DNA from: Candidatus Methylomirabilis limnetica
GTDB taxonomy: Bacteria > Methylomirabilota > Methylomirabilia > Methylomirabilales > Methylomirabilaceae
Assembly (NCBI RefSeq): GCF_003044035.1
Contig: NZ_NVQC01000030.1
Location: 1-32,000 of the forward strand
Reading direction: 5' to 3'
Length of the DNA: 32,000 nt
Position numbers and translations under genes: made by a program. How positions within the stretch are numbered: the first letter of the stretch is position 1; each line of letters starts with the position of its first letter. A model generated the notes under the pieces. The model had not been told where the DNA came from and searched no databases. It saw only the letters and a program-made list of their open reading frames with translations. Below, in pieces: positions 6,902 to 29,544 of this stretch.

Positions 6902-7186
6902 ATGAGAAGGATTTCCAAGGTTAAGGTCTTGCCAGGGTATCGGCTGGAGTTGGAATTCGACGATGGGGTATGTGGCATTGTGGATCTCTCTGAAACCGTC
7001 GGCAAGGGTGTGTTCGCCCTGTGGCGCGACCCGCTCGTCTTCGATCAGGTTCGTATCGGTTCATTCGGAGAACTGGTCTGGGACGACCGGATTGATCTGT
7101 GCCCGGATGCACTCTACCTCAAGGTAACGGGCAAGAAACCGGAAGACATTTTCCCTGCGCTACGCGGCCAGCCCACCCATGCCTGA
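6902..7186 (+). CDS. DUF2442-family small protein
   Basis: ISKVKVLPGYRLELEFDDGVCGIVDLSETVGKGVFALWRDPLVFDQVRI...LVWDDRIDLCPDALY matches my memory of the DUF2442 consensus. GGTGGGGAG lies upstream of the ATG. Overlaps the next gene by 8 nt. Confidence 0.8.
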   Translation: MRRISKVKVLPGYRLELEFDDGVCGIVDLSETVGKGVFALWRDPLVFDQVRIGSFGELVWDDRIDLCPDALYLKVTGKKPEDIFPALRGQPTHA

Positions 7187-7439
7187 GATCAGCCGTTTCT
7201 TCGGCATCGTCATCAAGATGTTCTTCGACGATCATAACCCGCCGCACTTTCATGCAGAGTATGGCGGCGACCTTGCCTTGATCGATATCCGAACTCTGGC
7301 CGTATTTTCCGGACGGTTGCCGCCTCGCGTAACAGGTCTTGTGATTGAGTGGGCGACGCTTCATCAGCGGGAGCTTCTCGCCGATTGGGATAGGGCACGA
7401 GCGCAGGAGGAACTTCAGAAGATCGCGCCCTTGGAATGA
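7179..7439 (+). CDS. DUF4160-family small protein
   Basis: MPEISRFFGIVIKMFFDDHNPPHFHAEYGGDLALIDI... is the canonical DUF4160 N-terminus with the H-x-PPHFH motif. The 8-nt overlap with the DUF2442 gene suggests translational coupling. Confidence 0.8.
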   Translation: MPEISRFFGIVIKMFFDDHNPPHFHAEYGGDLALIDIRTLAVFSGRLPPRVTGLVIEWATLHQRELLADWDRARAQEELQKIAPLE

Positions 7440-7511: not shown

Positions 7512-8381
7512 ATAGACTTTGTCAAGTTCGAACCGATCTCGATCCGTAACCATCCTGAACTAAACGAGCGATGGGTCCAAGACCGGATTGCCGAGGACCC
7601 GTCCATACTCGGACTTGGGGATGTCGTGTTGAAGGACCGTGAACGCATGCAGCCCAAAGCCGGACGACTCGATTTGCTTCTTCAGGATGTGGAGTCAAGC
7701 CGCCGATACGAGGTCGAGATTCAACTCGGCGCCACGGATGAGAGCCACATCATCCGCACTATCGAGTACTGGGATATCGAACGGAAGCGCTATCCGCAAT
7801 ACGAGCACACAGCCGTCATCGTTGCCGAAGATATTACGAGCCGCTTCCTCAATGTAATCAACCTGTTTAACGGGACGATTCCTCTAATCGCCATCCAAAT
7901 GCGCGCCCTTCAGTCGGGCGGCAAGGTGGGCCTCGTGTTCACGACTATCGTTGACCTCCTTTCACTCGGCCTCGTTGATGAAGATGAAGAAGGACAGGAG
8001 CCGACGGACCGGGCATACTGGGAGACGCGGGGATCTAAAAAGACCGTCGCTATGGCTGACCAACTCCTTACCATTGCCAAGGCACACGACCCAACCCTAG
8101 AACTAAAATACAACAAGTTCTACATTGGTCTCGCCCGAAACGGGCAACCGTGCAACTTTGTCGTCTTTCGTCCAAAGAAGGGATTCATCCGATTTGAGGT
8201 CAGACTCAGGAACTCGCCTGAGACCCAGGAGCGTTTGGAGTCAGCAGGTCTGGATGTCATGGATTACGACAACCGCTGGGGGTACTACCGCATAAGACTC
8301 CAGCCAGGAGAACTCGACAAGCACAAGCTGATACTGTCTGACGTGATTGCTGAAGCATATGCGGCAAGCGCACAGAAATGA
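7512..8381 (+). CDS. PD-(D/E)XK / NucS-like nuclease-fold protein with a DUF5655-like C-terminal domain
   Basis: Core GRLDLLLQD...RRYEVEIQLGATDESHIIRTIEYW resembles restriction-endonuclease-fold D...E.Q/K motifs. The C-terminus (ELKYNKFYIGLARNGQPCNFVVFRPKKGFIRFEVRL...WGYYRIRLQPGEL) resembles DUF5655. The supplied ORF starts at GTG 7626, but the frame is open from 7500 and the upstream translation looks genuine. AGGAG (7500-7504) lies 7 nt before ATA 7512. The start is uncertain. Confidence 0.7.
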   Translation: MDFVKFEPISIRNHPELNERWVQDRIAEDPSILGLGDVVLKDRERMQPKAGRLDLLLQDVESSRRYEVEIQLGATDESHIIRTIEYWDIERKRYPQYEHTAVIVAEDITSRFLNVINLFNGTIPLIAIQMRALQSGGKVGLVFTTIVDLLSLGLVDEDEEGQEPTDRAYWETRGSKKTVAMADQLLTIAKAHDPTLELKYNKFYIGLARNGQPCNFVVFRPKKGFIRFEVRLRNSPETQERLESAGLDVMDYDNRWGYYRIRLQPGELDKHKLILSDVIAEAYAASAQK

Positions 8382-8527: not shown

Positions 8528-8695
8528 ATGTTCGTGACGTGGAAGGGGGACCACACACCTCGACACGTGCATGTCTACCGCGACGGACAGTTCATCGTGA
8601 CGTGGGATCTTGAGAACCTGAAACCGATGAAAGGCGAGGCACCCCGCAGGGTTATCGAACTCATTGGAGAGCTTGAGTCTGAGGGACGGCTATGA
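8528..8695 (+). CDS. Divergent DUF4160-like small protein
   Basis: MFVTWKGDHTPRHVHVYRDGQFIVTWDLENLKP... has the H-x-P-x-H-V-H motif of the second DUF4160 subtype. GAGGTGG (8516-8522) precedes ATG 8528. ATG 8501 is an alternative start. The stop overlaps the next start (ATGA). Confidence 0.65.
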   Translation: MFVTWKGDHTPRHVHVYRDGQFIVTWDLENLKPMKGEAPRRVIELIGELESEGRL

Positions 8696-11521: not shown

Positions 11522-12994
11522 ATGGCGACGCAACTGATGAAACCGGAGCGATTTTTCCTGGAGAAGTTCGGGCTGACGGAGCGGCATCTGGAACGGGGAC
11601 TGGGGGCCGCCCTTGGCCGACAGATCGATGACGCTGATCTCTACTTCGAGTACCGGATCAGCGAGTCCATGCTGCTCGAGGAGGGGATAATCAAGCAGGC
11701 GACAAAGAACATCAACCAGGGGGTCGGCGTCCGGGCCCTCGCCCATGAGAAGACCGGGTACGCCTTTTCCGACGAGATCAGCGTAGAGAACCTGGAACTC
11801 GCCGGCGCCCGAGCCAAGGGGATCGCTGAGCGGGCGGGCGTTGGGACTCCTCCACCGGTGAAGGTTGGCGGCACGCCTCCCCATGATCTGTACCCGGTTC
11901 ACCTCCAGCCAATAGAGATTCCGCTGGAGAAAAAAATCGATCTGCTCCAGCGAATCGATGCCATCGCCAGGAGCGCAGACCCCCGGATCGTCCAGGTGAT
12001 GGCATCATTTGCCTGCGAGTCCAAGATCGTTCTGATCGCGACCTCTGCCGGCGTCATGGTCGGCGACATCCAGCCGCTCTCTCGCCTGAACATCACCTGC
12101 ATCGCCCAAGAGGGCGACAACAGGCAGGTCGGGAGCTGGGGCGGAGGCGGCCGGGCCGACTTTGAGTTCTTCCTGGAGGGGGGCCGCTTCGAGCGCTACG
12201 CCAAAGAGGCCGCCCGCCTGGCCATCATGAACCTCAGCGCGGCCGACGCGCCCGCCGGAACGATGGACGTCGTCCTCGGCCCAGGATGGCCCGGGATCTT
12301 GCTGCACGAGGCTATCGGCCACGGCCTTGAAGGCGACTTCAACCGGAAGAAGACCTCGGCCTTCTCTGATCGGATCGGGCAGCAGGTGGGCTCTCCGCTT
12401 GTTACCGTAGTGGACGATGGCACGATCCCCGGACGCCGTGGCTCGCTGAATATCGATGACGAGGGAACGCCGACCGGACGCACGGTTCTGATCGAGCGCG
12501 GGATCCTGCGGGGGTATCTGCAAGATCGCTTGAATGCGCGCCTGATGGGAATGGAACCCACAGGCAACGGCCGACGCGAGAGCTATGCCTATCAGCCGCT
12601 CCCACGCATGACCAACACATTCATGCTGCCTGGCGACTCGACGCAAGAGGAGATCATCAGATCTGTCAAGCACGGCCTGTACGCCGTGACCTTCGGCGGC
12701 GGCCAAGTGGACATCACGAGCGGCAAGTTCGTCTTTTCGGCCAGCGAGGCCTACATGATTGAGGACGGGAAGGTCACAATGCCGGTCAGGGGCGCAACGT
12801 TGATCGGCCACGGCCCGGATGTTCTCACCAGGGTTACCATGGTAGGCAATGATCTTTCACTGGACGAGGGGGTTGGGACGTGCGGTAAGGACGGTCAATC
12901 GGTCCCCGTAGGCGTGGGCCTCCCTACCATCAAGATCGAGGGGCTGACAGTGGGCGGGACCCAGGGCATGCCAAAGGGGGAGCGAAGCCAATGA
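11522..12994 (+). CDS. tldD: Metalloprotease TldD
   Basis: 490 aa with the HEAIGHGLEGD zinc motif and a typical TldD C-terminus. GGGAGTGAGGA lies upstream of the ATG. A 4-nt overlap joins it to pmbA. Confidence 0.92.
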   Translation: MATQLMKPERFFLEKFGLTERHLERGLGAALGRQIDDADLYFEYRISESMLLEEGIIKQATKNINQGVGVRALAHEKTGYAFSDEISVENLELAGARAKGIAERAGVGTPPPVKVGGTPPHDLYPVHLQPIEIPLEKKIDLLQRIDAIARSADPRIVQVMASFACESKIVLIATSAGVMVGDIQPLSRLNITCIAQEGDNRQVGSWGGGGRADFEFFLEGGRFERYAKEAARLAIMNLSAADAPAGTMDVVLGPGWPGILLHEAIGHGLEGDFNRKKTSAFSDRIGQQVGSPLVTVVDDGTIPGRRGSLNIDDEGTPTGRTVLIERGILRGYLQDRLNARLMGMEPTGNGRRESYAYQPLPRMTNTFMLPGDSTQEEIIRSVKHGLYAVTFGGGQVDITSGKFVFSASEAYMIEDGKVTMPVRGATLIGHGPDVLTRVTMVGNDLSLDEGVGTCGKDGQSVPVGVGLPTIKIEGLTVGGTQGMPKGERSQ

Positions 12995-14334
12995 TCAGCC
13001 GGCAGATCGTCGAGGAAGTCCTGCAAGAGGCAAAGCGAAAAGGCGCCACAGCGGCTGACTTGGTGCTGATCGAGAATGAGCTGGTCACAGCTCAGGTCAG
13101 GCTAAGGGAGACCGAAACGCTCCGAAGCGCCAAAGAGGTCCGACTTGGGTTGCGGCTTTTTTTCGACAAACGGTCGGCCACCAGCTCCACCTCAGACCTC
13201 TCCAAGGAGTCGCTCGCGCGATTGGTGGAGGATACTGCCGTCCTGGCAAAGGCAATCGCCCACGATGAGTGCTCGGGGCTGCCGCCGGCGGAAGAGTGCG
13301 CCAAGAGCATCCCGGATCTTGATCTGTACGATCCTGACGGCGAGGCCCTCACCGTCAAGGACCAGATCGATCGAGCCAGGACGGCTGAGGATGCGGCCCT
13401 GTCCTATGACAGCAGGATCACCAATTCCGAGGGGGCAGAGTTCGCGAGCAACCTCTATCGGATCATCTACGGCAGCAGCCAGGGCTTTCTGGGTGAGTAT
13501 CGAGGCTCGACCTTCAGCCTAGCGGTGACACCCATCGCCTCGTCTGAGGACGGCATGCAACGCGATCACTGGTACTCGCGCGCCAGGCACCTGGGCGCCA
13601 TGGAGTCGCCTGAAGCGATTGGGAAGCGGGCGGCCGAGCGAACCCTCAGGCGCCTGGGCGCACGGAAGATCAAGACCCAGGAGGTCCCGGTGATCTTCGA
13701 CCCTGATACCGCTGCCAATCTCATGCGCATCTTCTGTTCTGCGCTCTTCGGTCCAGCCCTCTACCGTGGGGCCTCATTTCTGATCGACAGGCTGGGTGAT
13801 CGGATCGCCGCTGAGAGTATCTCTATATACGACGATGGCACATTACCCGGCCATCTTGGCTCAAAGCCGTTCGATGGCGAGGGACTCCCAACCCGCCGGA
13901 ATGCCATCGTAGAAAATGGCGTCCTGCGCAGCTACCTCCTCGATAGCTATTCCGCCCGCAAGCTCGGGATGAAGCCGACCGGCAGCGCGGCTCGAGGCGC
14001 CGGCGATTCCCCAACCCCCTGGCCGACGAACTTTTACCTTCAGTCCGGGTCGCACGAGCCGGCTGAGATCATTCGATCGGTGGACGCCGGACTCTATGTC
14101 ACCGAACTGATCGGTTTCGGCGTGAACCTCGTCACAGGAGACTACTCGCAGGGCGCGGTGGGGTTCTGGATAGAGAAGGGTGAGCTGACCTACCCGGTAG
14201 AGGAGATCACCATCGCCGGTAACCTCAAGGAGATGCTCTTGGGGATCGAGATGGTAGGTAATGACCTGATATTTCGCAGCAGCGTCGTCGCCCCCACCCT
14301 CAAGATCCGCCGCATGACCGTCGCCGGGCACTGA
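12991..14334 (+). CDS. pmbA: Metalloprotease PmbA (TldE)
   Basis: 447-aa TldD/PmbA-family protein lacking the HExxH motif, translationally coupled to tldD, as expected for PmbA. Confidence 0.9.
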   Translation: MISRQIVEEVLQEAKRKGATAADLVLIENELVTAQVRLRETETLRSAKEVRLGLRLFFDKRSATSSTSDLSKESLARLVEDTAVLAKAIAHDECSGLPPAEECAKSIPDLDLYDPDGEALTVKDQIDRARTAEDAALSYDSRITNSEGAEFASNLYRIIYGSSQGFLGEYRGSTFSLAVTPIASSEDGMQRDHWYSRARHLGAMESPEAIGKRAAERTLRRLGARKIKTQEVPVIFDPDTAANLMRIFCSALFGPALYRGASFLIDRLGDRIAAESISIYDDGTLPGHLGSKPFDGEGLPTRRNAIVENGVLRSYLLDSYSARKLGMKPTGSAARGAGDSPTPWPTNFYLQSGSHEPAEIIRSVDAGLYVTELIGFGVNLVTGDYSQGAVGFWIEKGELTYPVEEITIAGNLKEMLLGIEMVGNDLIFRSSVVAPTLKIRRMTVAGH

Positions 14335-14548
14335 ACCGAGCGCACGCCCCTCTATTCTCCTGGGTCATTGCGAGTGCCAGACGGGCGCGATGCGATAGTG
14401 TATCCTTCTTTCACCCCACCGCCTTGACCGAATCCGAGCTCTGGATCTGCTTTCCCCTTATGGTCTCCCCGATCATGGAGGCACTCGTGATTCCTCTTGG
14501 TCTATCGTGGATATCAATGTATCCTCATAACAAGGAGGATAAGACGAT

Positions 14549-14833
14549 ATGGGAAAGAAACAAACCGTCAGCGTGGTCTTAGATGCTGAGGTGGCGGACG
14601 CCCTGAAAGCGGAAGCGGTGGGTCGGGACCGTAGCATGAGTTGGATCGTAAACCGCCTCCTGGGTGCAGCCCTCCGGCCTCCCCATCGGATCACCCTTGA
14701 GGAAGTGCTACCCGAGGACCCCGACTGGGAGATCATCCATGCGCGCCGCCACGAGCCGCTCGCCAACTTCGACATTTATCACCGGGAGCGGGTGAAAAAG
14801 AGCGGACTGCGAAAGACCGCACGAGATGGCTGA
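14549..14833 (+). CDS. Ribbon-helix-helix (CopG-like) antitoxin
   Basis: N-terminal KKQTVSVVLDAEVADALKAEAVGRDRSMSWIVNRLL shows the RHH pattern. AAGGAGGA lies upstream. An 8-nt overlap joins it to the RelE/ParE-family gene. Confidence 0.7.
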   Translation: MGKKQTVSVVLDAEVADALKAEAVGRDRSMSWIVNRLLGAALRPPHRITLEEVLPEDPDWEIIHARRHEPLANFDIYHRERVKKSGLRKTARDG

Positions 14834-15092
14834 TGCCTACAAGGTCCGTTTCCGCAGCCGCTCTGTCCGTAAAGAGCTGGATAGCCTGGACGATGACACG
14901 TATCTCCGTATTGTGGCAGCGATCCACCGCCTTCGGGAGAATCCTCGCCCGCCAGAGACGAAAAAACTCACCGGGCAGGAGGTCTACCGCATCCGACTAG
15001 GCGACTACCGGGTCCTCTACACGGTAGATGACAAGGCGAAAGAGGTACGGATTGAAGCGGTCCGCAGGCGGAACGAACGGACATATGACTGA
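14826..15092 (+). CDS. RelE/ParE-family type II toxin
   Basis: 88 aa with LRENPRPPETKKLTGQEVYRIRLGDYRVLYTVDDKAKEVRIEAVRRRNERTY, the typical RelE/ParE C-terminal pattern. Confidence 0.75.
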   Translation: MADAYKVRFRSRSVRKELDSLDDDTYLRIVAAIHRLRENPRPPETKKLTGQEVYRIRLGDYRVLYTVDDKAKEVRIEAVRRRNERTYD

Positions 15093-15094
15093 CA

Positions 15095-15381
15095 GGGAGC
15101 GCACGATCGCGCGGAGTTCATTCGGTTGGTAGACGAAGGCCTCTCCATCACAACTCATCGGCCCCGGCGTGAACCTCGTCACAGGCGACTACTCGCAGAG
15201 CGCGGTGGGGTTCTGGATCGAGAAGGGTGAGCTGACCTACCCGGTAGAGGAGATCACCATTGCCGGTAACCTCAAGGAGATGCTCTTGGGGATCGAGATG
15301 GTCGGTAATGACCTGACATTTCGCAGCAGCGTCATCGCCCCCACCCTCAAGATCCACCGCATGACCGTCGCCGGACACTAA
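15095..15381 (+). pseudogene. Orphan duplicate of the pmbA 3' end
   Basis: 15166-15381 aligns base for base with 14119-14334 (216 nt, 10 mismatches counted by eye). 15095-15165 is a much more diverged match to 14047-14118, with a 1-nt length difference that breaks the frame. It begins 2 nt after the RelE-family stop. Confidence 0.85.
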
Positions 15382-15473
15382 TGCGGACAGAACACTCACG
15401 CCGTTACTGACGTCCAGGAAATCTTAGGACCAAATTCTACTTTGAAACCGCCGATCATCCAAATGCCGCCCGA

Positions 15474-15716
15474 TCAACGCTCATCGTTACCCTTCGACTT
15501 CCACTCACCCTTCCGCTCGATGGCGAGATATCCCCGATCCCTGGCTCTCACAGCCCGACGCAGCGCTTCGAGCGTCGGCCACGGGCATTTTGCCGGCCAC
15601 ACACCCTCGCCGTGGAGTTCCGCCGTTATCCGAGCATGGCCGTAGGCCGCCCTCTTTATTTGGGCCGCAGCCGCCTTGGCGAGGCTCAGGCTCTCCTTGA
15701 GGGCACTACACAGCAC
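15474..15716 (-). CDS. Hypothetical small protein (80 aa), unassigned
   Basis: GTG-initiated ORF 28 nt downstream of the propeller gene on the same strand. No motif recognised, and it may be non-coding. Confidence 0.3.
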   Translation of the reverse strand: MLCSALKESLSLAKAAAAQIKRAAYGHARITAELHGEGVWPAKCPWPTLEALRRAVRARDRGYLAIERKGEWKSKGNDER

Positions 15717-15743
15717 GTCCCGATGAAGCCGAGCGCCGGTTGA

Positions 15744-17336
15744 CTACTGCACCGTCACCGACAGATAGTCATAGACCCCGTTCAGATTCAGGCCGGCGCT
15801 GGTATCGATATTGAGGTGGCCATCCACGACAAAGTCACAGCCCAGGTACAGTTCATAGGTTCCCACCGGGGCGGTGTCGGAATAGAGCGAGTAGACGCCA
15901 TCAGCTTGCCCACTACTCAGATACGGGGTGACAACCGAGAGATCCGCTGGAAGCGGTACCCACCCAAGGGCGCCAAGGTACGACCAGGGCATTCCCATGG
16001 CCGGAGCGTTGACGACCAGAAATATCTCCTTGTCGCTGCATCCTTGGACAGTATAGGTAACCGTCACAGGATTCGTTAGGGCCGGTCCTGGGCCGGAGCC
16101 GACAGCCTCCAACTCAACCGACGGGCTGCTAGCCAGGATGATCTCATGGTTACCGTCGGAGTTGCCGCCGGTCAGGTTGCTGGTGGAAACGAAAGCGATC
16201 CGGGTACCGTCGGCGTTGAGGGATGGATCGAAGCTGTCGCCCCCGGTGGTGGCGGTAAGCTGGATGAAGCCAAAGACGGAGGTCCAGAGGAAGATTTCGG
16301 AATTGCTGTCGGGGTTGCTGCCGGTCAGGTTGCGATTGGAGCGAAAGGCGATTCGTGTACCGTCGGCGGAGATGGAGGGATCCCAGTTGTAACCCCCGGT
16401 GGTGGTGGTGACTTGGGTGAAGCCGGAGCCGGAGGTCCAGAGGAAGATCTCAGAATTACCATCGGAGTTGCTGCCGGTCAGGTTACTGGTGGAAACAAAG
16501 GCGATTTTGGTGCCGTCAGCGGAAATAGAGGGACTGTCGCTCCCGCCTCCGGTGGTGGTGGTAACCTGGGCGAGACCGAAACCGTTAGTCCAGAGGAAGA
16601 TCTCAGAGTTGCCGCCCGGGTTGCCACCGGTCAGGTCGTGGGTGGAGTAAAAGGCGATCCTGGTGCCGTCAGCGGAGATGGAGGGGTTGTAGTGGGTGCT
16701 AGCACCGTTGGTAGCCGTAAGCTGGGTGAAAACGGACCCGGCAGTCCAAAGGAAGATCTCAGGATTACCATCGAGATTACCGCCAGTAACCAGGTTGCGG
16801 TCGGAGCCAAAGGCGATGCGGGTGCCGTCGGCATTGATGGAGGGGGCGAAGTTTTGGCCTCCAGTGGTATTAGTGACCTGGATGAAGCCGGAGCCTGAGG
16901 TCCAGAGGAAGATCTCATTGTTGCCGTCGGAGTTGCTCCCGGTCAGATTGCGGGTGGATAGAAAAGCAATTCGAGTACCATCGGCGGAAATAGAGGGGTA
17001 GGAGTAGGTGCTGTCCCCGGTAGTGTCAGTGATCTGGGTAAAGCCGGATCCGGCAGTCCAAAGGAAAATCTCCCAGTTACCGTCGAGATTGCTATTCTGG
17101 ACCAGGTCGCGGCTGGAGCGAAAGGCGATTCGTGTACCGTCGGCGGAGATGGAGGGGCTGGCGCTACCGTCCCCGATGGTGGTGGTGAGTTGGGTATGCG
17201 TGAACTGGGCCTCGGAGATCACGGGGTTCCACCAGGCAACCAACGTTATGGCCGCAATCGCAACAACGTACCGCCACCACATATTTATCCCCATGTCTCT
17301 GAATGTGTACCACTTTAGTCCTATCGCACTCCGCAT
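15744..17336 (-). CDS. Secreted or membrane-anchored 7-bladed PD40 (TolB-like) beta-propeller protein with an unassigned ~125-aa C-terminal domain
   Basis: Seven consecutive ~51-aa units of the form Q(V/L)TTTTGG...PSISADGTRIAF.S.RNLTGSN.DGN.EIFLWTSGSGF. Hydrophobic N-terminal segment WWRYVVAIAAITLVAWW. The ORF opens at 17438, next to the dnaE stop codon. I prefer ATG 17336, which is preceded by GGAGGGGG; ATG 17294 and 17282 are also possible. Confidence 0.85.
   Translation of the reverse strand: MRSAIGLKWYTFRDMGINMWWRYVVAIAAITLVAWWNPVISEAQFTHTQLTTTIGDGSASPSISADGTRIAFRSSRDLVQNSNLDGNWEIFLWTAGSGFTQITDTTGDSTYSYPSISADGTRIAFLSTRNLTGSNSDGNNEIFLWTSGSGFIQVTNTTGGQNFAPSINADGTRIAFGSDRNLVTGGNLDGNPEIFLWTAGSVFTQLTATNGASTHYNPSISADGTRIAFYSTHDLTGGNPGGNSEIFLWTNGFGLAQVTTTTGGGSDSPSISADGTKIAFVSTSNLTGSNSDGNSEIFLWTSGSGFTQVTTTTGGYNWDPSISADGTRIAFRSNRNLTGSNPDSNSEIFLWTSVFGFIQLTATTGGDSFDPSLNADGTRIAFVSTSNLTGGNSDGNHEIILASSPSVELEAVGSGPGPALTNPVTVTYTVQGCSDKEIFLVVNAPAMGMPWSYLGALGWVPLPADLSVVTPYLSSGQADGVYSLYSDTAPVGTYELYLGCDFVVDGHLNIDTSAGLNLNGVYDYLSVTVQ
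16130..17192 (-). repeat. Seven tandem 153-bp coding repeats (the propeller blades)
   Basis: The landmark CCGGTCAGG recurs at 16168, 16321, 16474 and 16627, an exact 153-nt spacing. Degenerate equivalents follow at about 16786 (6-nt insertion), 16939 and 17095. Confidence 0.85.
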
Positions 17337-17434
17337 CGCCCCCTCCGTCTGAAAGTTAACGCCCGTCGACAAACAGCAACGCTCCCGTCTGTTCCTCACA
17401 AATACGCTGCAGATTCCTGACGGGGTCTCCGAGA

Positions 17435-20400
17435 TCACGCGCCGGTGATCGTACCCGGGCCCAACAGGGCCTCCACCTCTCGCCTGAGCAGCTCGTCCGC
17501 TGCGACGGTCATGTCTGGCGATGCGGCAATAGTCACCTGGGCACCTGGCGCAACGCTCAGGTGGAGCTTGACAGGAACGGGTCCAGGAAATCTCAGTAGC
17601 AGGCCTTTGAGCTGCTCCAGTTGCGGGGCGGACAGGTGCGATTCCTCTACCGTGATCTCCACTATCGACCTTCCGTTGCGCCTGGCGTTCGCAAGAGGAC
17701 TCACCTCCGTCAAGAGCAACTTGACCACCTCTTCGCCCACATCCACCTGTCCCTTTACCAGAACGGCCACATCCTTCACCAGGTGGAGCAGGTTCGCCTT
17801 GTAGAGCTCAGGAAATACTACCGCCTCTACCGTTCCGACCATATCTTCGAGCGTCACGAAGGCCATCCGCTCTCCGTTCTTTGTGGCGATCTCCTTGATG
17901 GCGACCACGATGGCGCATAGCGTGACCGTCTCTTTGTCCTGGCAGGTCGCGAGGCGATCGGTGGTAACAGCCGCAACCTTCGCGATGACATCCCGATAAG
18001 CGGCCAGCGGGTGGCCGGTGACGTAGAAGCCTAACGTCTCCTTTTCGGCGGCCAAGCGTAGGCTTGCCGACCACTCCGGGATGACTGGCAGCGCTCCTGC
18101 CTGGTGGCCGAGCCCGCCCTTCGTCTCCAGGACATCCAGCATTGAGACCTGGCCATGGACCCGCTCCCGCTGTACGCCGGCACCAGCCTCCATCGCCTTG
18201 TCCGCAACAGCCATGAGCTGAGCCCTCGCCGCCCCGAGAGAGTCGAATGCCCCGCACTTGATCAGACTTTCGATCACCCGTTTATTTACGAGGCGCAGGT
18301 CCACCCGCTCGCAGAAGTCGAAGATGGAGCGCAAAGGACCTTTGCCCCGCCGTGTGGCCAGGATCGACTGGATAGCCGTCTCACCGACATTCTTGATGGC
18401 CACCAGCCCGAATCGAATCTGCTCCCCCACGACGGTAAAGCTGCTTTCCGACTCGTTGACATCCGGTGGCAGAACCGTGATCCCCATCTGTCTGCACTCG
18501 TCGATGTATTTGGCGATCTTGTCGGTATCAGCCATCCCGGAGGTAAGGAGGGCCGCCATGAACTCAACCGGGTAATGGGCCTTGAGGTAGGCGGTCTGAT
18601 AGGCCACGATGGCGTAAGCAGTCGCGTGGGGTTTGTTGAAGGCATACCCCGCGAAGGGGGCCATTTTATCAAAGACCTTTTCCGCCGTCCGCGCCGGGAT
18701 CTTTTTCGCCTTCGCCCCGTCGACAAATTTCTTCCGCTGTTGATCCATCATCTCGGGGTCTTTCTTGCCCATCGCCTTACGCAGCACATCCGCCTCTCCC
18801 ATTGAGAAACCGGCAAGATCCGAGGCGATCCGCATCACCTGTTCCTGGTAGACCATGATCCCATAGGTTTCTTTGAGGATCGTCTCCATCAACGGGTGGT
18901 CGTAGCGGATCTTGACCTTACCATGCTTGCGGTCGATAAAGTCATCGATCATCACCATCGGTCCGGGTCGGTAGAGCGCCACGATGGCGATGACGTCCTC
19001 CAGCCGTTCCGGCTTCAGACGCCGCATCAGATCCCGCATCCCCGAGGATTCCAGTTGAAACACCCCGAAGGTCCGCGCCTCGCTGAGCAGTTGGAAGATC
19101 GCCGGGTCATCGAGGGGGATCTCCTCGATCTTAAACCTATGCCCGCGTCCCGCCGCGATCAGTTCCAGGGTGTTGGCGATGACCGTCAGGGTCCGAAGCC
19201 CCAGAAAGTCGATCTTCAACAGGCCAATCGTCTCGATGCCCTTCATGGCGTACTGGGTCGTCGGCTTGCTGCCGGCCTTTGAATCTTTGTAGAGCGGGAC
19301 ATGCTCGGTGAGTGGGTCGCCGGAGATCACGACACCCGCCGCGTGGGTTGAGGCGTGCCGTGTCAGTCCCTCCAGACATTTGGCAATCCGCCACAGCTCC
19401 TCCACCTCTGCCCGGCTCTGCACCGCCTCGGTAAGCGGTGGGCTCTCGGCAATCGCCTCGTCCAGACTGATATTGATCCGATTGGGGACCAACTTGGCGA
19501 TCTTATCCACCTCGGAATAGGGCATCCCCAGGCCCCGCCCGACGTCCCGGATGACCGCCTTGGCGCCCATCGTCCCGAACGTGATAATCTGGGCTACATT
19601 GTCGGCTCCATATTTCCTGGTCACATATTCGATCACCTCATCTCGCCGATCATCGCTGAAGTCGATGTCCATATCCGGCATACTGATCCGTTCGGGGTTC
19701 AGGAACCGTTCAAAGATCAGGCCGTACCGGAGCGGATCGATGTTGGTGATGCCAAGGCAGTAGGCAACCAGCGAGGCAGCCGCCGAGCCACGGCCAGGAC
19801 CGACTGAGATCCCCCGATCCTTGGCGTACTTGATGAAGTCCCAGACCACCAGGAAGTAACCGGCGAAGCCGGTCTTTTGGATGACCTCCAGCTCGTACTT
19901 CATGCGCGTCTCAACCTCGGCATTCACATCCGGGTAACGGACCTTCAGTCCCTCCCAGGCCAAATGGGCCAGATAGGTCTCGATCGTATACCCCTCTGGC
20001 GCCTGGTACTTGGGCAGGCGGAGCTGGCCGAACTGGAGCTGGAGGTTGCAGCGCTCGGCCACGGTAATAGTGTTCTTAACCGCCTCCGGCAGCTCGACAA
20101 AGACCTGCTTCATCTCCGCTGCCGATTTGAAGTAGAACTGATCGGTAGAAAAGCGCCACCGATCCTTGTCCTGAATCGTCTTCCCGGTCTGAATGCAGAG
20201 CAGCACCTCGTGGGCACGCGCATCTTCTTTGCTGGGATAGTGCAGGTCGTTGGTGGCGACAATCGGCAGCTCGAAGGCCTTGGCGAGTCGCAAGATGCCC
20301 TCAGCGACCTTTTTCTGCTCGGCCATTCCGTGGTCCTGAATCTCTAAAAAGTAGTTCTCACGCCCTAGCGCCTCGGTATACCAACTGACAGTCTCCCTCG

Positions 20401-20875
20401 CCCGAGCCTCGTCGCCATTCAGCAATGCCTTGGCCGCCTCACTGTTCAGGCAGCCGGAGAGGACAATCAGTCCTTGACAGTGCTGGGCAAACAACTCCCG
20501 GTCGATTCGAGGCTTATAGTAGAACCCCTCCAGATAGCCGGCCGAAACCAGCTTGATGAGATTCTTATAGCCGACCTGGTCCTTGGCCAGCAGGGTGATG
20601 TGGCTGGCGCCCTCGTAGCCGCTGTCCTGATTGGATCTCTCAAAACGGCTGCCGGGCGCAATATACACCTCACAGCCGATGATCGGCTTCACCCCTTCCT
20701 TCATCGCGAGGGTATAAAAGTCGATCGCACCGAAGAGGTTGCCGTGATCCGTGACAGCCAGGGCAGGCATCCGGTACTCCTTCGCCTTGGCCACCAGCTT
20801 CTCCAGGGAACAGGCCCCATCCAACAGGCTGTACTGGCTATGAACGTGCAGGTGCACAAAATCAGAATGGTGCAT
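17435..20875 (-). CDS. dnaE: DNA polymerase III alpha subunit
   Basis: 1146 aa. PHP domain FVHLHVHSQYSLLDG at the N-terminus and typical polymerase core motifs (GPGRGSAAASLVAYCLGIT, PDMDIDF). GGAGGAT lies upstream of the ATG. Confidence 0.97.
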   Translation of the reverse strand: MHHSDFVHLHVHSQYSLLDGACSLEKLVAKAKEYRMPALAVTDHGNLFGAIDFYTLAMKEGVKPIIGCEVYIAPGSRFERSNQDSGYEGASHITLLAKDQVGYKNLIKLVSAGYLEGFYYKPRIDRELFAQHCQGLIVLSGCLNSEAAKALLNGDEARARETVSWYTEALGRENYFLEIQDHGMAEQKKVAEGILRLAKAFELPIVATNDLHYPSKEDARAHEVLLCIQTGKTIQDKDRWRFSTDQFYFKSAAEMKQVFVELPEAVKNTITVAERCNLQLQFGQLRLPKYQAPEGYTIETYLAHLAWEGLKVRYPDVNAEVETRMKYELEVIQKTGFAGYFLVVWDFIKYAKDRGISVGPGRGSAAASLVAYCLGITNIDPLRYGLIFERFLNPERISMPDMDIDFSDDRRDEVIEYVTRKYGADNVAQIITFGTMGAKAVIRDVGRGLGMPYSEVDKIAKLVPNRINISLDEAIAESPPLTEAVQSRAEVEELWRIAKCLEGLTRHASTHAAGVVISGDPLTEHVPLYKDSKAGSKPTTQYAMKGIETIGLLKIDFLGLRTLTVIANTLELIAAGRGHRFKIEEIPLDDPAIFQLLSEARTFGVFQLESSGMRDLMRRLKPERLEDVIAIVALYRPGPMVMIDDFIDRKHGKVKIRYDHPLMETILKETYGIMVYQEQVMRIASDLAGFSMGEADVLRKAMGKKDPEMMDQQRKKFVDGAKAKKIPARTAEKVFDKMAPFAGYAFNKPHATAYAIVAYQTAYLKAHYPVEFMAALLTSGMADTDKIAKYIDECRQMGITVLPPDVNESESSFTVVGEQIRFGLVAIKNVGETAIQSILATRRGKGPLRSIFDFCERVDLRLVNKRVIESLIKCGAFDSLGAARAQLMAVADKAMEAGAGVQRERVHGQVSMLDVLETKGGLGHQAGALPVIPEWSASLRLAAEKETLGFYVTGHPLAAYRDVIAKVAAVTTDRLATCQDKETVTLCAIVVAIKEIATKNGERMAFVTLEDMVGTVEAVVFPELYKANLLHLVKDVAVLVKGQVDVGEEVVKLLLTEVSPLANARRNGRSIVEITVEESHLSAPQLEQLKGLLLRFPGPVPVKLHLSVAPGAQVTIAASPDMTVAADELLRREVEALLGPGTITGA

Positions 20876-21031: not shown

Positions 21032-21253
21032 TTACGCCACTTCCTGCATGGGGCGAATGCGAGGACTGGGAAGTGGGCGTTCCTTAGCCTCAAAATGACG
21101 AATGACATCCTCGACCACTTCGCACAGTTCACTGTAGAGTCTGACCGGATCATCTCCATGAATTCCGGTAATCAAATCAGGACACTTCCCAATATACGTG
21201 TGATCTTCTTCACTCCACTCGACCCACTTATGATACTGATCGCTCTCTTTCAT
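21032..21253 (-). CDS. HicB-like (antitoxin-fold) small protein without a DNA-binding tail
   Basis: YHKWVEWSEEDHTYIGKCPDLITGIHGDDPVRLYSELCEVVEDVIRHFEAKERPLPSP matches the HicB N-terminal domain pattern (W SeED ... pel.G ... lP.P). 73 aa. It lies 4 nt after the DUF433 gene. Confidence 0.65.
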   Translation of the reverse strand: MKESDQYHKWVEWSEEDHTYIGKCPDLITGIHGDDPVRLYSELCEVVEDVIRHFEAKERPLPSPRIRPMQEVA

Positions 21254-21257
21254 TGAC

Positions 21258-21473
21258 TCACCTTCTCGTCAGGAGGGCGGACTTGGCTAACTCGAGAACG
21301 GCAATGGCGTGTTCACGGGAAACGATGGGAAAGTCCTTCAGAAACTCATCAAGGGTATCCCCGGCTTCCAGATAATCGATGAGAGTCTGGATAGGCACTC
21401 TGGCGCCAGCAAAGACGGGGATACCACTCAGTCGATCTGGCGATGTTGTGATCAATGGCTCTGGAACAAGCAT
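21258..21473 (-). CDS. DUF433-family small protein
   Basis: ITTSPDRLSGIPVFAGARVPIQTLIDYLEAGDTLDEFLKDFPIVSREHAIAVLELA matches the DUF433 pattern (G.Pv..GtRipv..l...l..G....e.l.dyP.l....i.aal.). Confidence 0.7.
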   Translation of the reverse strand: MLVPEPLITTSPDRLSGIPVFAGARVPIQTLIDYLEAGDTLDEFLKDFPIVSREHAIAVLELAKSALLTRR

Positions 21474-28656: not shown

Positions 28657-29544
28657 TTAGGCCCTTGGGTGGTAGCGGTTGTAGACCGTCTTCAGGTGCG
28701 CCCGGGAGACGTGAGTGTAGATCTGCGTCGTGGAGATATCGGCGTGACCTAACATCATCTGGACCGCCCGAAGATCGGCGCCGCGCTCGAGCAGGTGCGT
28801 GGCAAAAGAATGGCGAAGCGTGTGAGGGGTCACCCGCCGATCGATCCCCGCCGCTACCGCATGCGCGCGGAGGAGCTTCCAGAAGCCCTGACGCGTCATC
28901 GGCCACCCAAGGCGGTTCAAGAATAGCACAGGACTTGACCGTCCTTTTTGAAGATGCGGCCTTGAGGTAGCGAGATACTGGCGAACGGCCGTCTGGGCAT
29001 CGCTCCCCAGTGGAACCACACGGTCCTTCCCGCCCTTTCCTTGGCAGCGCACGTAGCCCACTTCCAGGTCCACATCGGACAACCGGAGGGTTACCAGCTC
29101 CGACACTCGAAGGCCGGCCGCGTACAGCACCTCCAGCATTGCCTTGTCACGGATACCTCGCGGATTGCTGGTGACCAGCGCGGCCAGCAGCCGCTCCACC
29201 TCCTCCTGGCTCAGCACCCCTGGTAAACGCATCCAGGGGCTCGTGGACTCGAGGTGCGCGGTGGGATCATCTTTCACATGGCCCTGCGCCAGGAGAAACC
29301 GGAAGAGGCCCCGCAGCGACGCAATGTGGCGCGCGACCGTGCGAGGCGCCAACCCCTCCTCTCGGAGCGTCAAGAGCAGGCGCGCGACCTGCCCGCGGCT
29401 GACCTCCTGGAATGCGCTAGCCCCAGCGTGCTTGAGGTAACCGGTTATCCGGCGAAGATCCCGCGCATACGCTGCCAGGCTGTTCTCAGCCAGTCCCCGC
29501 TCGACCGTGAGATACCTCAGGTATTCCTCGATCAACTGCTCCAT
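28657..29544 (-). CDS. xerD: Tyrosine site-specific recombinase, XerD-like
   Basis: 295 aa. N-terminal YLTVERGLAENSLAAYARDL and C-terminal HTLRHSFATHLLERGADLRAVQMMLGHADISTTQIYTHV supply the R..H-x-x-R..Y catalytic set. XerC versus XerD cannot be settled without a search. Confidence 0.8.
   Translation of the reverse strand: MEQLIEEYLRYLTVERGLAENSLAAYARDLRRITGYLKHAGASAFQEVSRGQVARLLLTLREEGLAPRTVARHIASLRGLFRFLLAQGHVKDDPTAHLESTSPWMRLPGVLSQEEVERLLAALVTSNPRGIRDKAMLEVLYAAGLRVSELVTLRLSDVDLEVGYVRCQGKGGKDRVVPLGSDAQTAVRQYLATSRPHLQKGRSSPVLFLNRLGWPMTRQGFWKLLRAHAVAAGIDRRVTPHTLRHSFATHLLERGADLRAVQMMLGHADISTTQIYTHVSRAHLKTVYNRYHPRA

Follow-up and report, generated by a model that had tools for sequence, protein, structure and literature searches.

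A duplicated pmbA tail brackets a putative toxin-antitoxin cassette in Methylomirabilis: an apparently old cargo site that may be maintained and exchanged by homologous recombination

The last part of pmbA in Candidatus Methylomirabilis limnetica is present twice, on either side of a putative toxin-antitoxin cassette. Comparison with related loci makes us lean, though not strongly, towards the reading that this is a repeat-bracketed cargo site at the pmbA 3' end, old in Methylomirabilis, that is maintained and exchanged by homologous recombination. The upstream tail copy (S1) would complete the working pmbA, and the downstream copy (S2) would be a non-functional orphan at the place of the native tail. 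By the window we mean the whole stretch of DNA analysed, 32,000 nucleotides of contig NZ_NVQC01000030.1; recombination, conversion and loop-out are processes that we infer from sequence patterns in metagenome-assembled genomes, which were assigned to clades from their pmbA and tldD identities.

The functional pmbA (12991-14334, +; 447 aa) carries three PmbA/TldD Pfam domains, the C-terminal one at E = 8e-82. Its start overlaps the tldD stop by 4 nt, and its orthologues in Methylomirabilis genomes are 80-99% identical. S1 (14051-14340, +) comprises codons ~354-447, the stop and the nucleotides ACCGAG. That the pmbA tail is repeated around an RHH/RelE gene pair had been proposed in an earlier note on this DNA, and it is borne out: 14051-14334 and 15100-15381 align, and in the alignment of 14051-14332 with 15100-15379 identity is 89.7% over 282 nt with a single 2-nt gap, a similarity far above the chance level. 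The divergence is distributed unequally over the repeat (Fisher p = 1.5e-7). Over the 3' 216 nt (14119-14334 versus 15166-15381) the tails are 95.4% identical, compared with 72.7% over the 5' ~68 nt of the downstream tail, where the reading frame is broken, just as the note had described. Its count of ten differences in the 216-nt part is also exact: five synonymous third-position differences (14139, 14172, 14214, 14256 and 14328), four replacements (14152 G/S, 14270 I/T, 14287 V/I and 14309 R/H), and TGA versus TAA at 14333. The downstream copy can accordingly be described in two parts. The first is the cassette/orphan junction with the eroded orphan 5' part (15093-15165, +), which carries P376 and the 2-nt deletion and would be old, unconverted and of clade-B type. 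The second is S2 (15166-15381, +), the orphan 3' part that appears homogenised with S1; it is annotated in assemblies as a 70-aa ORF (15169-15381) and carries a C-terminal fragment of PF19289. A 9-nt direct repeat, GAGCGCACG, at 14338-14346 and 15097-15105 was considered as a target-site duplication and rejected. Since only the (C)GCAC core is common to other lineages, this repeat seems mostly lineage-specific, and would be microhomology at best.

Between the tails lies what appears to be a type II toxin-antitoxin operon of an RHH-like antitoxin and a RelE-type toxin. The putative antitoxin (14549-14833, +; 94 aa) precedes the toxin and overlaps its start by 8 nt. It matches RHH domains weakly, both in PF01402 (RHH_1; 18 bits, under the cut-off of 20.5) and in PDB profiles of the RHH proteins CdbA, CopG and PutA (E = 0.02-1.3). 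Its orthologues are 65-85% identical, with residues 1-42 nearly invariant. The toxin (14826-15092, +; 88 aa) belongs to the RelE/ParE superfamily by PF05016 (36.8 bits, cut-off 23), and its best profile match is the archaeal RelE (aRelE) 1WMI (E = 6e-6), followed by YoeB and RelE; the NCBIfam model RelE_StbE gives 18.5, under the cut-off of 27.9. The toxin family is tight, with ~80 clusters at 72-99% identity. The same antitoxin/toxin gene pair is kept in all R-type loci and in L178, the only cassette copy seen away from pmbA, which is without any tail scrap. The cassette leader (14335-14548, +) is likewise homologous in all R-type loci. Upstream of the antitoxin, at ~14484-14545, it contains conserved promoter- or operator-like blocks and an RBS, and one such block, TTC(C/T)TCTTGGT.AT, is also retained in L178. 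A REP/MITE-like motif, GTCATTGCGAG...GC.AT, lies in the leader at 14364. The form GTCATTGCGAG...GCAATC follows the pmbA stop in most occupied loci with that flank assembled, and was considered as an element backbone or att site; it was rejected as a dispersed repeat, L169 having six copies in 16 kb, one of them inside its orphan tail. The motif is not enriched in the window, and neither it nor the leader as a whole has an Rfam match. With its two small overlapping genes, antitoxin first, its RelE-fold toxin, and its patchy distribution in variable regions, the module resembles chromosomal type II RelE/ParE-RHH modules in general. The unusual feature lies not in the module but in the duplicated gene tails that bracket it, and in the conservation of this bracket. 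In the literature, searches on toxin-antitoxin systems of Methylomirabilis and on pmbA as a site of integration gave no relevant result.

Where, then, was the native tail? In the relative L007 the site is empty, with 69 nt from the pmbA stop to the dnaE stop, so that the search of relatives for empty sites, suggested in the earlier note, has yielded one. In the sister strain L166, the first 9 nt and the last ~35 nt of the flank 3' of the orphan match this pmbA-dnaE spacer of L007, and the orphan of L177 retains TGAACCGAA. Because the native spacer comes after the orphan in L166, the downstream tail copy appears to occupy the original chromosomal position of the native tail. This fits the architecture of an insertion that duplicates the pmbA tail, and agrees with the suggestion that the downstream copy is the displaced old tail.

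Such a layout could also have been left by an integrative element that recombined site-specifically, with a pmbA 3' end in its attP, or by a satellite lacking an integrase; the tyrosine integrase responsible would since have been lost, or would act in trans, and the toxin-antitoxin pair would be a remnant. This is in essence what the earlier note proposed. We regard this explanation as doubtful, although it has a well-documented precedent in the icd/e14/icdC arrangement of E. coli. There, a housekeeping gene carries an insert at its 3' end, with the gene tail present on either side of it: one of the tails completes the gene, and the other, icdC, is a C-terminal fragment pseudogene beside the native flank. 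When the tails recombine, the insert is lost and a chimeric gene results (PMC13626634). Common to the pmbA site and e14/phage 21 at icd are the direct repeats of a gene 3' end around an insert and a native flank that follows the distal copy. A further point in favour is the existence of empty sites. For four cargo types, the 5' boundaries of the orphan cluster within ~25-45 nt (PmbA codons ~340-354), which could mark an attachment site, and L011 has the R cassette and VapBC in tandem with tail scraps between them, as in accretion.

However, the e14 prophage, of 15 kb, encodes an integrase, uses a fixed attachment site and supplies the upstream tail, whereas the insert in pmbA is 0.76 kb, without a recombinase. 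In about a dozen occupied loci there is no integrase between the repeats nor within 6-8 kb, and none of the Methylomirabilis loci fetched has an integrase-bearing element at pmbA. The only recombinase of the window is a tyrosine recombinase at 28657-29544, a housekeeping XerD 13 kb away; the earlier statement that no integrase is present thus holds for the neighbourhood of the cassette, but not for the window. There is no pmbA tail in IMG/VR viral contigs, and no close relative of RelE among the plasmids and phages searched with the toxin. As such, we see no sign that the cassette is the stump of a larger island, as had been proposed. Nor does the unit look like an integron gene cassette: no integron integrase was found (XerD outscores the integron models), nor a conserved attC-like inverted repeat at the cassette end, and the cassette carries its own promoter region. 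The orphan 5' boundaries vary with cargo type and do not give a single crossover point. Synonymous sites of the tail hold no conserved nucleotide core either: their conservation rises only slightly in the last 20 codons (0.74-0.77 versus ~0.6-0.65), to a level that is also seen elsewhere in the gene. Moreover, in L177 and L173, the least converted loci, it is the orphan that diverges, with S1 being host-type, the opposite of an S1 supplied by an element; for the 3' 216 nt, gene conversion blurs the reading of this test of the origin of the proximal tail. The host-like upstream tail, the foreign piece in the 5' part of the downstream copy, and the genus-wide conservation all set the pmbA site apart from e14/icd. 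Integrase-less units are known from the cis-mobilizable elements (CIMEs) at the 3' end of streptococcal fda, which are bounded by att repeats and can form tandem arrays by site-specific accretion, and which have short att sites and depend on the integrase of a related ICE or IME that targets the same site. The pmbA site is similar in being integrase-less and repeat-bounded at the 3' end of a housekeeping gene, and in having tandem units. Its repeats, in contrast, consist of ~290 nt of coding sequence that seem to undergo gene conversion, and no integrase-bearing partner is present in the loci examined.

The arrangement does not look like a fresh insertion. The junction between the RelE stop and the tail, TGA-CAGGGAGCGCACGA, is conserved in the window and in L169/171, has few substitutions in L111 and L166, and occurs in a shortened, more eroded form in L011. 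Because the same junction is common to at least six Methylomirabilis lineages, diverged to ~80%, it appears to have been created once. Between the window and L011, RHH is 84.5% and RelE 81.6% identical, compared with 81.4% for tldD and 77-83% for pmbA, and the distance matrix of the cassettes broadly agrees with that of the hosts. Since the junction is conserved in diverged lineages, and divergence in the cassette matches that of the housekeeping genes beside it, we conclude that the arrangement is probably old in the genus. A metagenome scan with the pmbA tail gave mostly other phyla among the matches listed, of which L086 and L111 were useful. Short PmbA-tail proteins form at least 120 clusters, not all of which can be counted as orphans, because a frameshifted pmbA also yields such fragments; only inspected loci are counted here. 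L175 and L176, which at first sight were cases outside the genus, were rejected on these grounds, their 'orphans' being pieces of frameshifted pmbA in long-read assemblies.

Why do the two tails nevertheless look so alike? The tails of L010, of L167, of L169 and of the group of the window and L166 cluster within their genome, and the two tails of the window are mutual closest relatives with lineage-specific states in common. Because the tail pairs cluster in this way, the pattern indicates that gene conversion between S1 and S2 keeps them alike. In L010, differences between the copies are patchy, with nine clustered in ~60 nt, and the orphan of L166 is 98% identical to the functional tail over its full length. 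Comparison of the window with L166 further shows sites 14172 and 14270 to be swapped between the copies, and sites 14214 and 14287 to be copy-specific in both. When the changes in the 216-nt part are polarised, those derived in the orphan only are three nonsynonymous and one synonymous, all of them G>A, plus TGA>TAA. The remaining changes are one nonsynonymous and four synonymous, with those derived in S1 only being three synonymous and one nonsynonymous. The ratios of 3N:1S versus 1N:4S suggest that selection is relaxed on the orphan copy only. The earlier note had read the ten differences as those of two functional tails diverging in different genomes, rather than as decay in situ. Neither part of that reading agrees with the tails being mutual closest relatives, nor with the orphan ratio and the two swapped sites, which point to decay on top of gene conversion. 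The ten differences would instead be a mixture of synonymous-biased changes in the selected copy, nonsynonymous-biased decay of the orphan, and sites shuffled between the two.

An old junction of single origin, a cassette about as diverged as its flanks among distant lineages, the short CGCAC microhomology at both cassette junctions, and concerted evolution, which explains the similarity of tails within genomes, would all be expected from a purely local history. In it, a toxin-antitoxin operon already downstream of pmbA would have gained its tail copy by one ancient in-situ duplication or template switch at the CGCAC microhomology, followed by vertical descent, decay and conversion, with no movement between genomes. 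We think this unlikely, due to what is seen in the closest comparisons. Upstream of the cassette, the window and L166 are nearly identical (tldD 99.7%, pmbA 98%, S1 98.9%), whereas in the cassette they differ by 12-13% (IGR 87.6%, RHH 88.8% and RelE 86.9% identity) and in the orphan 5' part they share only 72.6%; in S2 identity rises again to 96.3%. The breakpoints are sharp and lie at the repeats, where flanks differing by 0.3-2% meet the divergent cassette. The cassette allele therefore appears to have been swapped between lineages by recombination in the repeats. The orphan 5' part in addition looks foreign to its host: it is closest to clade-B tails and orphans (79-80%), compared with 74% to its own S1, and its ~70 nt carry P376 where the host tail carries F376. 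P376 is found in none of the 151 outgroups, and would be a derived, clade-B state, here in the orphan of a clade-A host. The foreign-looking part seems confined to these eroded 5' ~70 nt of the orphan. The proposal that the cassette arrived with an element-carried pmbA tail is thus right in that a tail piece of another lineage, marked by P376, seems to travel with the cassette, but this piece is the 5' ~70 nt of the downstream copy and not the upstream tail. Similarly, the cassette of L177 is equidistant from all other cassettes despite its clade-A host, and the bracket holds different cargos: VapBC in L010, Phd/RelE in L173, and a different small ORF in L086. An old local tandem duplication had been named in the earlier note as what a shared arrangement, with both tails equally close to the pmbA of relatives, would indicate. 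The duplicated arrangement is indeed present in many relatives, and the tails are about equally close to their pmbA; a static local duplication is, however, contradicted by the empty sites and the allele swaps.

An assembly artefact, in which a false join of pmbA-tail variants from different strains mimics a duplication, is hardly credible: although the source is a metagenome assembly and contigs of relatives (L009, L004 and L005) break inside the tail, the order S1-cassette-S2 is found in independent assemblies and samples (L003, L004/5, L166, L169-171, L177 and L181-183), the cassette/orphan junction is unique sequence spanned by contigs, and L004 ends where k = 31 unitigs should stop if a true repeat, with its identical blocks, delimits them. 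Both junctions recur in the independent assemblies L003, L004, L005 and L166. The Logan contigs L004 and L005 were also considered as circles, and rejected as such, their ends probably being where de Bruijn unitigs stop at the identical blocks of the tails.

A cargo site that is maintained and exchanged by homologous recombination, the reading that we favour, could have come about as follows. The junction would have a single origin, in a genome with the clade-B state P376 in its pmbA, and the S1-cassette-S2 unit would since have been inherited mostly vertically. Repeated gene conversion between S1 and S2 would, in this genome, hold the 3' 216 nt at ~95% likeness, leaving the 5' ~70 nt of the orphan old, eroded and imported. 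Occasionally, a cassette allele and the orphan 5' part next to it would be exchanged for those of another lineage, through homologous crossovers within the tail copies or at their edges. A piece of DNA that begins in the 3' part of S1 and ends, beyond the cassette, in the 5' part of S2 would be an 'ends-in' substrate, which could enter a single-tail site and regenerate the duplication, and neither this entry nor allele replacement would require an integrase. Conversely, recombination of S1 with S2 could delete the cassette precisely and give empty sites such as that of L007. As a further step, the dominance of toxin-antitoxin cargo may arise because post-segregational killing would penalise such loop-out; against this, non-toxin-antitoxin cargo (Uma2, Kelch and PD40) is also found in the flank. 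It must be taken into account that homologous recombination can propagate and maintain this structure, but cannot originate the first duplication.

Ends-in integration (Campbell-type, with gap repair) is known from plasmid and gene-targeting experiments, and its product is target-cassette-target, in which both copies have the recipient sequence where the gap was repaired and the donor sequence at the end of the fragment. Insertion-duplication of this kind predicts exactly the layout seen at pmbA; unlike in the experimental systems, its action here is deduced from sequence. To our knowledge, ends-in integration is not a recognised natural route by which toxin-antitoxin cassettes spread. We tentatively raise the possibility that these cassettes are minimal mobile units without a recombinase of their own, carrying a stretch of the pmbA tail that serves as a portable homology arm for RecA-dependent ends-in entry, with addiction as a counter to loop-out, the orphan being a reservoir able to rewrite the C-terminus of the essential-gene copy by conversion. 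If such a recombination-only route is real, toxin-antitoxin modules would have a simple means of spreading and of persisting, and selection would explain why it is addiction modules rather than other genes that are retained between direct repeats. The route would also be a warning for annotation, as a near-identical duplicate of a gene end with mostly synonymous differences would by itself prove neither a recent insertion nor two functional sources. Gene-tail duplications are usually read as footprints of integrase elements and of recent insertion. The footprint at pmbA persists genus-wide, gene conversion would make it look young, and its cargo, almost always toxin-antitoxin, would be exchanged through the repeats with no visible recombinase.

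Outside the cassette, the window differs from L166 in a later insertion of ~2 kb between the orphan and dnaE (15382-17400, -), at whose position L166 has a spacer of ~140 nt only. The insertion contains a doubtful 80-aa ORF (15474-15716), which was considered as a transposase or integrase remnant and rejected (HTH_21 at only 14.5 bits, E = 0.04, and no NCBIfam match), and a PD40 beta-propeller gene (15744-17438), in which the PD40 repeats are found at E = 8.5e-42.

The cassette studied here belongs to a Candidatus Methylomirabilis (NC10) genome, for which Methylomirabilis MAGs provide the nearest reference loci. It lies downstream of tldD (11522-12994) and pmbA (12991-14334), the latter being completed by the upstream of two copies of its own tail (S1). 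Two small genes follow, encoding 94 aa (14549-14833) and 88 aa (14826-15092) and overlapping by 8 nt, and then the downstream tail copy, a C-terminal pmbA fragment at 15100-15381 (S2, the orphan). Between this orphan and dnaE (17435-20875, minus strand) are an 80-aa ORF, the reality of which is doubtful, and a PD40 beta-propeller gene (15744-17438, minus strand). The 88-aa gene product is a toxin of the RelE/ParE superfamily (PF05016, 36.8 bits), and the profile of its family matches archaeal RelE 1WMI best (E = 6e-6), with YoeB and RelE next. The 94-aa protein has a nearly invariant N-terminus and weak ribbon-helix-helix matches. The pair has the appearance of an ordinary type II toxin-antitoxin operon, which with its leader (IGR) we refer to as the R-type cassette. 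The operon and an operator-like block are also found at an unrelated locus of a Rokubacteria-labelled MAG, there without a scrap of pmbA. Elsewhere the window is rich in small two-gene modules that resemble toxin-antitoxin systems, at ~6902-7439 (DUF2442 and DUF4160), 8528-8695 (a second DUF4160 fragment) and 21032-21473 (a 73-aa ORF and DUF433), as placed from the gene calls of contig L001 with an offset of +4990.

The repeat aligns 14051-14332 with 15100-15379 with a single 2-nt gap. Since both the pmbA/cassette and the cassette/orphan junctions were recovered in independent assemblies, the duplication is real. Its 3' 216 nt are 95.4% identical between the copies, while in the 5' ~68 nt identity drops to 72.7% and the frame is lost, a significantly unequal divergence (p = 1.5e-7). 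The earlier note had listed ten differences in the 216-nt part, with positions and kinds that proved exact, and had read them as two tails that were both under selection. When pooled, 4/9 codon changes are nonsynonymous, versus 72-76% expected by chance (p = 0.04-0.07), and this excess of synonymous changes is what had been seen. Polarised against up to 13 other tails, however, the changes separate into those exclusive to the orphan (TGA>TAA and four G>A changes, three of them nonsynonymous and one synonymous) and a remaining five (one nonsynonymous, four synonymous). Although these counts are small, the split is indicative of one copy under selection and one decaying, a mixture that would mimic two selected genes. 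In close relatives, contigs break where the identical blocks common to S1 and S2 predict, L009 inside the tail (window equivalent 14219) and L004/L005 at window 14226 and 15249/15229, so short-read assemblies will often miss or truncate this locus.

An R-type cassette followed by an orphan tail was found in the sister strain L166 and in the related loci L177, L111, L169-171, L167/168 and L181-183, and in L011 the cassette is followed by only a scrap of tail; the pmbA bodies of these hosts are 73-98% identical to that of the window. At the junction, the RelE stop is followed by CAGGGAGCGCACGA.C.CGC.GAG, which is the same in L169/171, carries a few substitutions in L111 and L166, and is shortened and eroded in L011. 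By this comparison, the cassette/orphan junction arose once. A recent insertion is contradicted by the junction being common to distant hosts and by the age of the cassette: between the window and L011, RHH (84.5%) and RelE (81.6%) are as diverged as tldD (81.4%) and pmbA (77-83%), and the distance matrices of cassette and host are broadly congruent. In L011, RelE is frameshifted at 7873-8096 (two tblastn segments in different frames) and the RHH gene is intact, which fits decay that began with the toxin, a common course when toxin-antitoxin loci degenerate.

Empty sites, which the earlier note suggested looking for in relatives, do exist: in L007, 69 nt separate the pmbA stop from the dnaE stop, with nothing inside. 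In L166, the orphan is directly followed by a ~140-nt spacer and dnaE, and both ends of this spacer (TGAACCGAG..., ...CTGCAGATTCCTGAC...ACGCGCCGGTGA) are homologous to the pmbA-dnaE spacer of L007; TGAACCGAA is also kept at the L177 orphan. As judged from these alignments, it is the orphan that occupies the native tail position. The ~2-kb PD40 segment (15382-17438) is absent from L166, 96% identical to the window, and is therefore a separate, more recent insertion into the same variable interval. The PD40 gene itself contains internal tandem repeats of 153-156 nt, and its start overlaps the dnaE stop. In another relative, L006, pmbA is directly followed by ~140 nt with homology to the leader of the cassette (L006 7345-7480, window 14335-14477), and beyond lies the ffh-rpsP-rimM-trmD-rplS operon rather than the toxin-antitoxin genes and dnaE; this piece looks like a cassette remnant adjoining a rearrangement.

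In a tree of the 216-nt tails, S1 and S2 pair within the genome for L010, L167, L169 and the window/L166 group, which, given the single origin of the R-type junction, requires repeated gene conversion. Comparison thus shows the two tails to be evolving in concert. In L010 the differences between them are patchy, nine falling inside ~60 nt with long identical stretches on either side, and the L166 orphan matches its functional tail at 98% identity from end to end, even across the 5' part, which in the window has eroded. Exchange is directly visible in the four copies of the window and L166: the derived allele at 14172 and 14270 resides in S1 in the window and in S2 in L166. At 14214 and 14287 the two copies differ in the same way in both genomes, and 14152, 14309, 14328 and 14333 set the window orphan apart from the other three copies. 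There are hints that, in the lineage of the window, the working gene has taken up a copy of orphan-type sequence. The functional tails of the window and L166 read YPVEE...(I/T)FRSS, and those of other members of clade A, the Methylomirabilis group of the host, YPVHE...SFRQS (L006, L007, L008, L014 and S1 of L177); the L177 orphan clusters with the tails of the window and L166, with which it has TFRSS in common.

The eroded 5' part of the orphan is closest to tails and orphans of the other group, clade B (79-80%); its identity is 74% with S1 of the same genome and 69-73% with the functional tails of clade A. It encodes IGPGV where the working host tail has IGFGV. In 151 outgroup PmbA loci, residue 376 is F in 108, M in 39, Q in 3 and R in 1, and never P, so in clade-B tails P376 is a derived state. 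Most economically, the junction would have formed in a genome with P376, and F376 hosts would have acquired the unit later. Between the window and L166, identity is 99.7% for tldD, 98% for pmbA and 98.9% for S1 (no differences in 13950-14149 or 14300-14349, three between), 87.6% for the IGR, 88.8% for RHH, 86.9% for RelE and 72.6% for the 5' part of the orphan, returning to 96.3% in its 3' part from ~15166. The proteins follow suit (TldD 100%, PmbA 98.9%, DnaE 98.5%; RHH 88%, RelE 83%). The flanks are thus nearly identical around a divergent allele of ~820 nt. Of its two breakpoints, the left is where S1 ends and the right lies within S2, at the point where the two tails of the window change from diverged to near-identical and where the L011 tail scrap ends. 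On this comparison, cassette alleles have been replaced, with breakpoints at the repeats.

Other cargo occupies the same site: an opposite-strand VapBC flanked by pmbA and a full orphan of its own (L010), VapBC after the R cassette and tail scrap (L011), Phd with a RelE-family toxin and an orphan (L173/174), a different small ORF and an orphan (L086), and, in L177, Uma2, the R cassette and the orphan followed by a PIN/RHH pair. All these orphans extend to the pmbA stop codon, and their 5' boundaries vary by cargo type, all within about 25-45 nt near PmbA codons ~340-354. Among ~150 pmbA loci in the matches listed for other phyla, none has a second tail. Two apparent cases, L175 and L176, are pmbA genes split into several short 'genes' by frameshifts in long-read metagenome assemblies. 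Such pieces look like orphan tails in protein databases, so the number of short PmbA-tail proteins is higher than that of true orphans.

We propose that exchanges between S1 and S2 and between alleles would proceed by RecA-type homologous recombination. At occupied sites, ends-out events would replace the cassette allele, and at naive sites the unit would enter by ends-in (Campbell-like, gap-repair) insertion, which predicts exactly the mosaic of the window: donor-type sequence in the 5' part of the orphan, and recipient-type sequence in the 3' part of S1 and S2 alike. Loop-out between S1 and S2 would produce empty sites, and a penalty on losing the toxin-antitoxin cargo would account for its persistence. 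For the first duplicating event, a template switch would fit the short CGCAC microhomology found at the two ends of the cassette.

A serious rival is integrase-dependent integration, with which the clustering of orphan 5' boundaries is compatible, as an attachment site. However, no integrase or transposase was found between the repeats or within 6-8 kb at any occupied locus inspected. The earlier statement that no integrase is present holds near the cassette but not for the whole window, which encodes a single recombinase, the tyrosine recombinase XerD (295 aa, 28657-29544, minus strand; 369 bits against an equivalog cut-off of 329.6), 13 kb away amid housekeeping genes. Neither a pmbA tail in viral contigs nor a close toxin relative on plasmids or phages was found. 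As a precedent, e14 / phage 21 at icd comes closest; the icdC pseudogene is found there, and when the two gene ends recombine, the insert is lost and a chimera results (PMC13626634). Among integrase-less elements, the CIMEs at fda are the nearest analogue. The pmbA locus departs from both families in two defining features, as it lacks a recombinase or related integrase-bearing element and as S1, which completes the gene, is not the foreign tail. The earlier idea of a foreign tail piece arriving with the cassette survives for the clade-B-like 5' part of the orphan, but not for the tail that restores pmbA. Literature searches gave no report of insertion at pmbA, and none of such an arrangement in Methylomirabilis.

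In the opposite-strand cassettes, the antitoxin start codon is ~25 nt from the orphan tail (L010 VapBC, 8097-8130; L173 Phd/RelE, 1552-1575), so their promoter would have to lie inside the orphan. The leader of the window also contains, at 14364-14395, a hairpin-prone repeated element, GTCATTGCGAG...GCAATC, of REP/MITE-like appearance and without an Rfam match. The window has one copy. In some Methylomirabilis genomes the element is dispersed, occurring six times in 16 kb of L169 (1043, 1178, 2065, 7026, 7869 and 14166), where one copy is inserted inside the orphan tail, and L008 carries it as an inverted pair (2305/2384).
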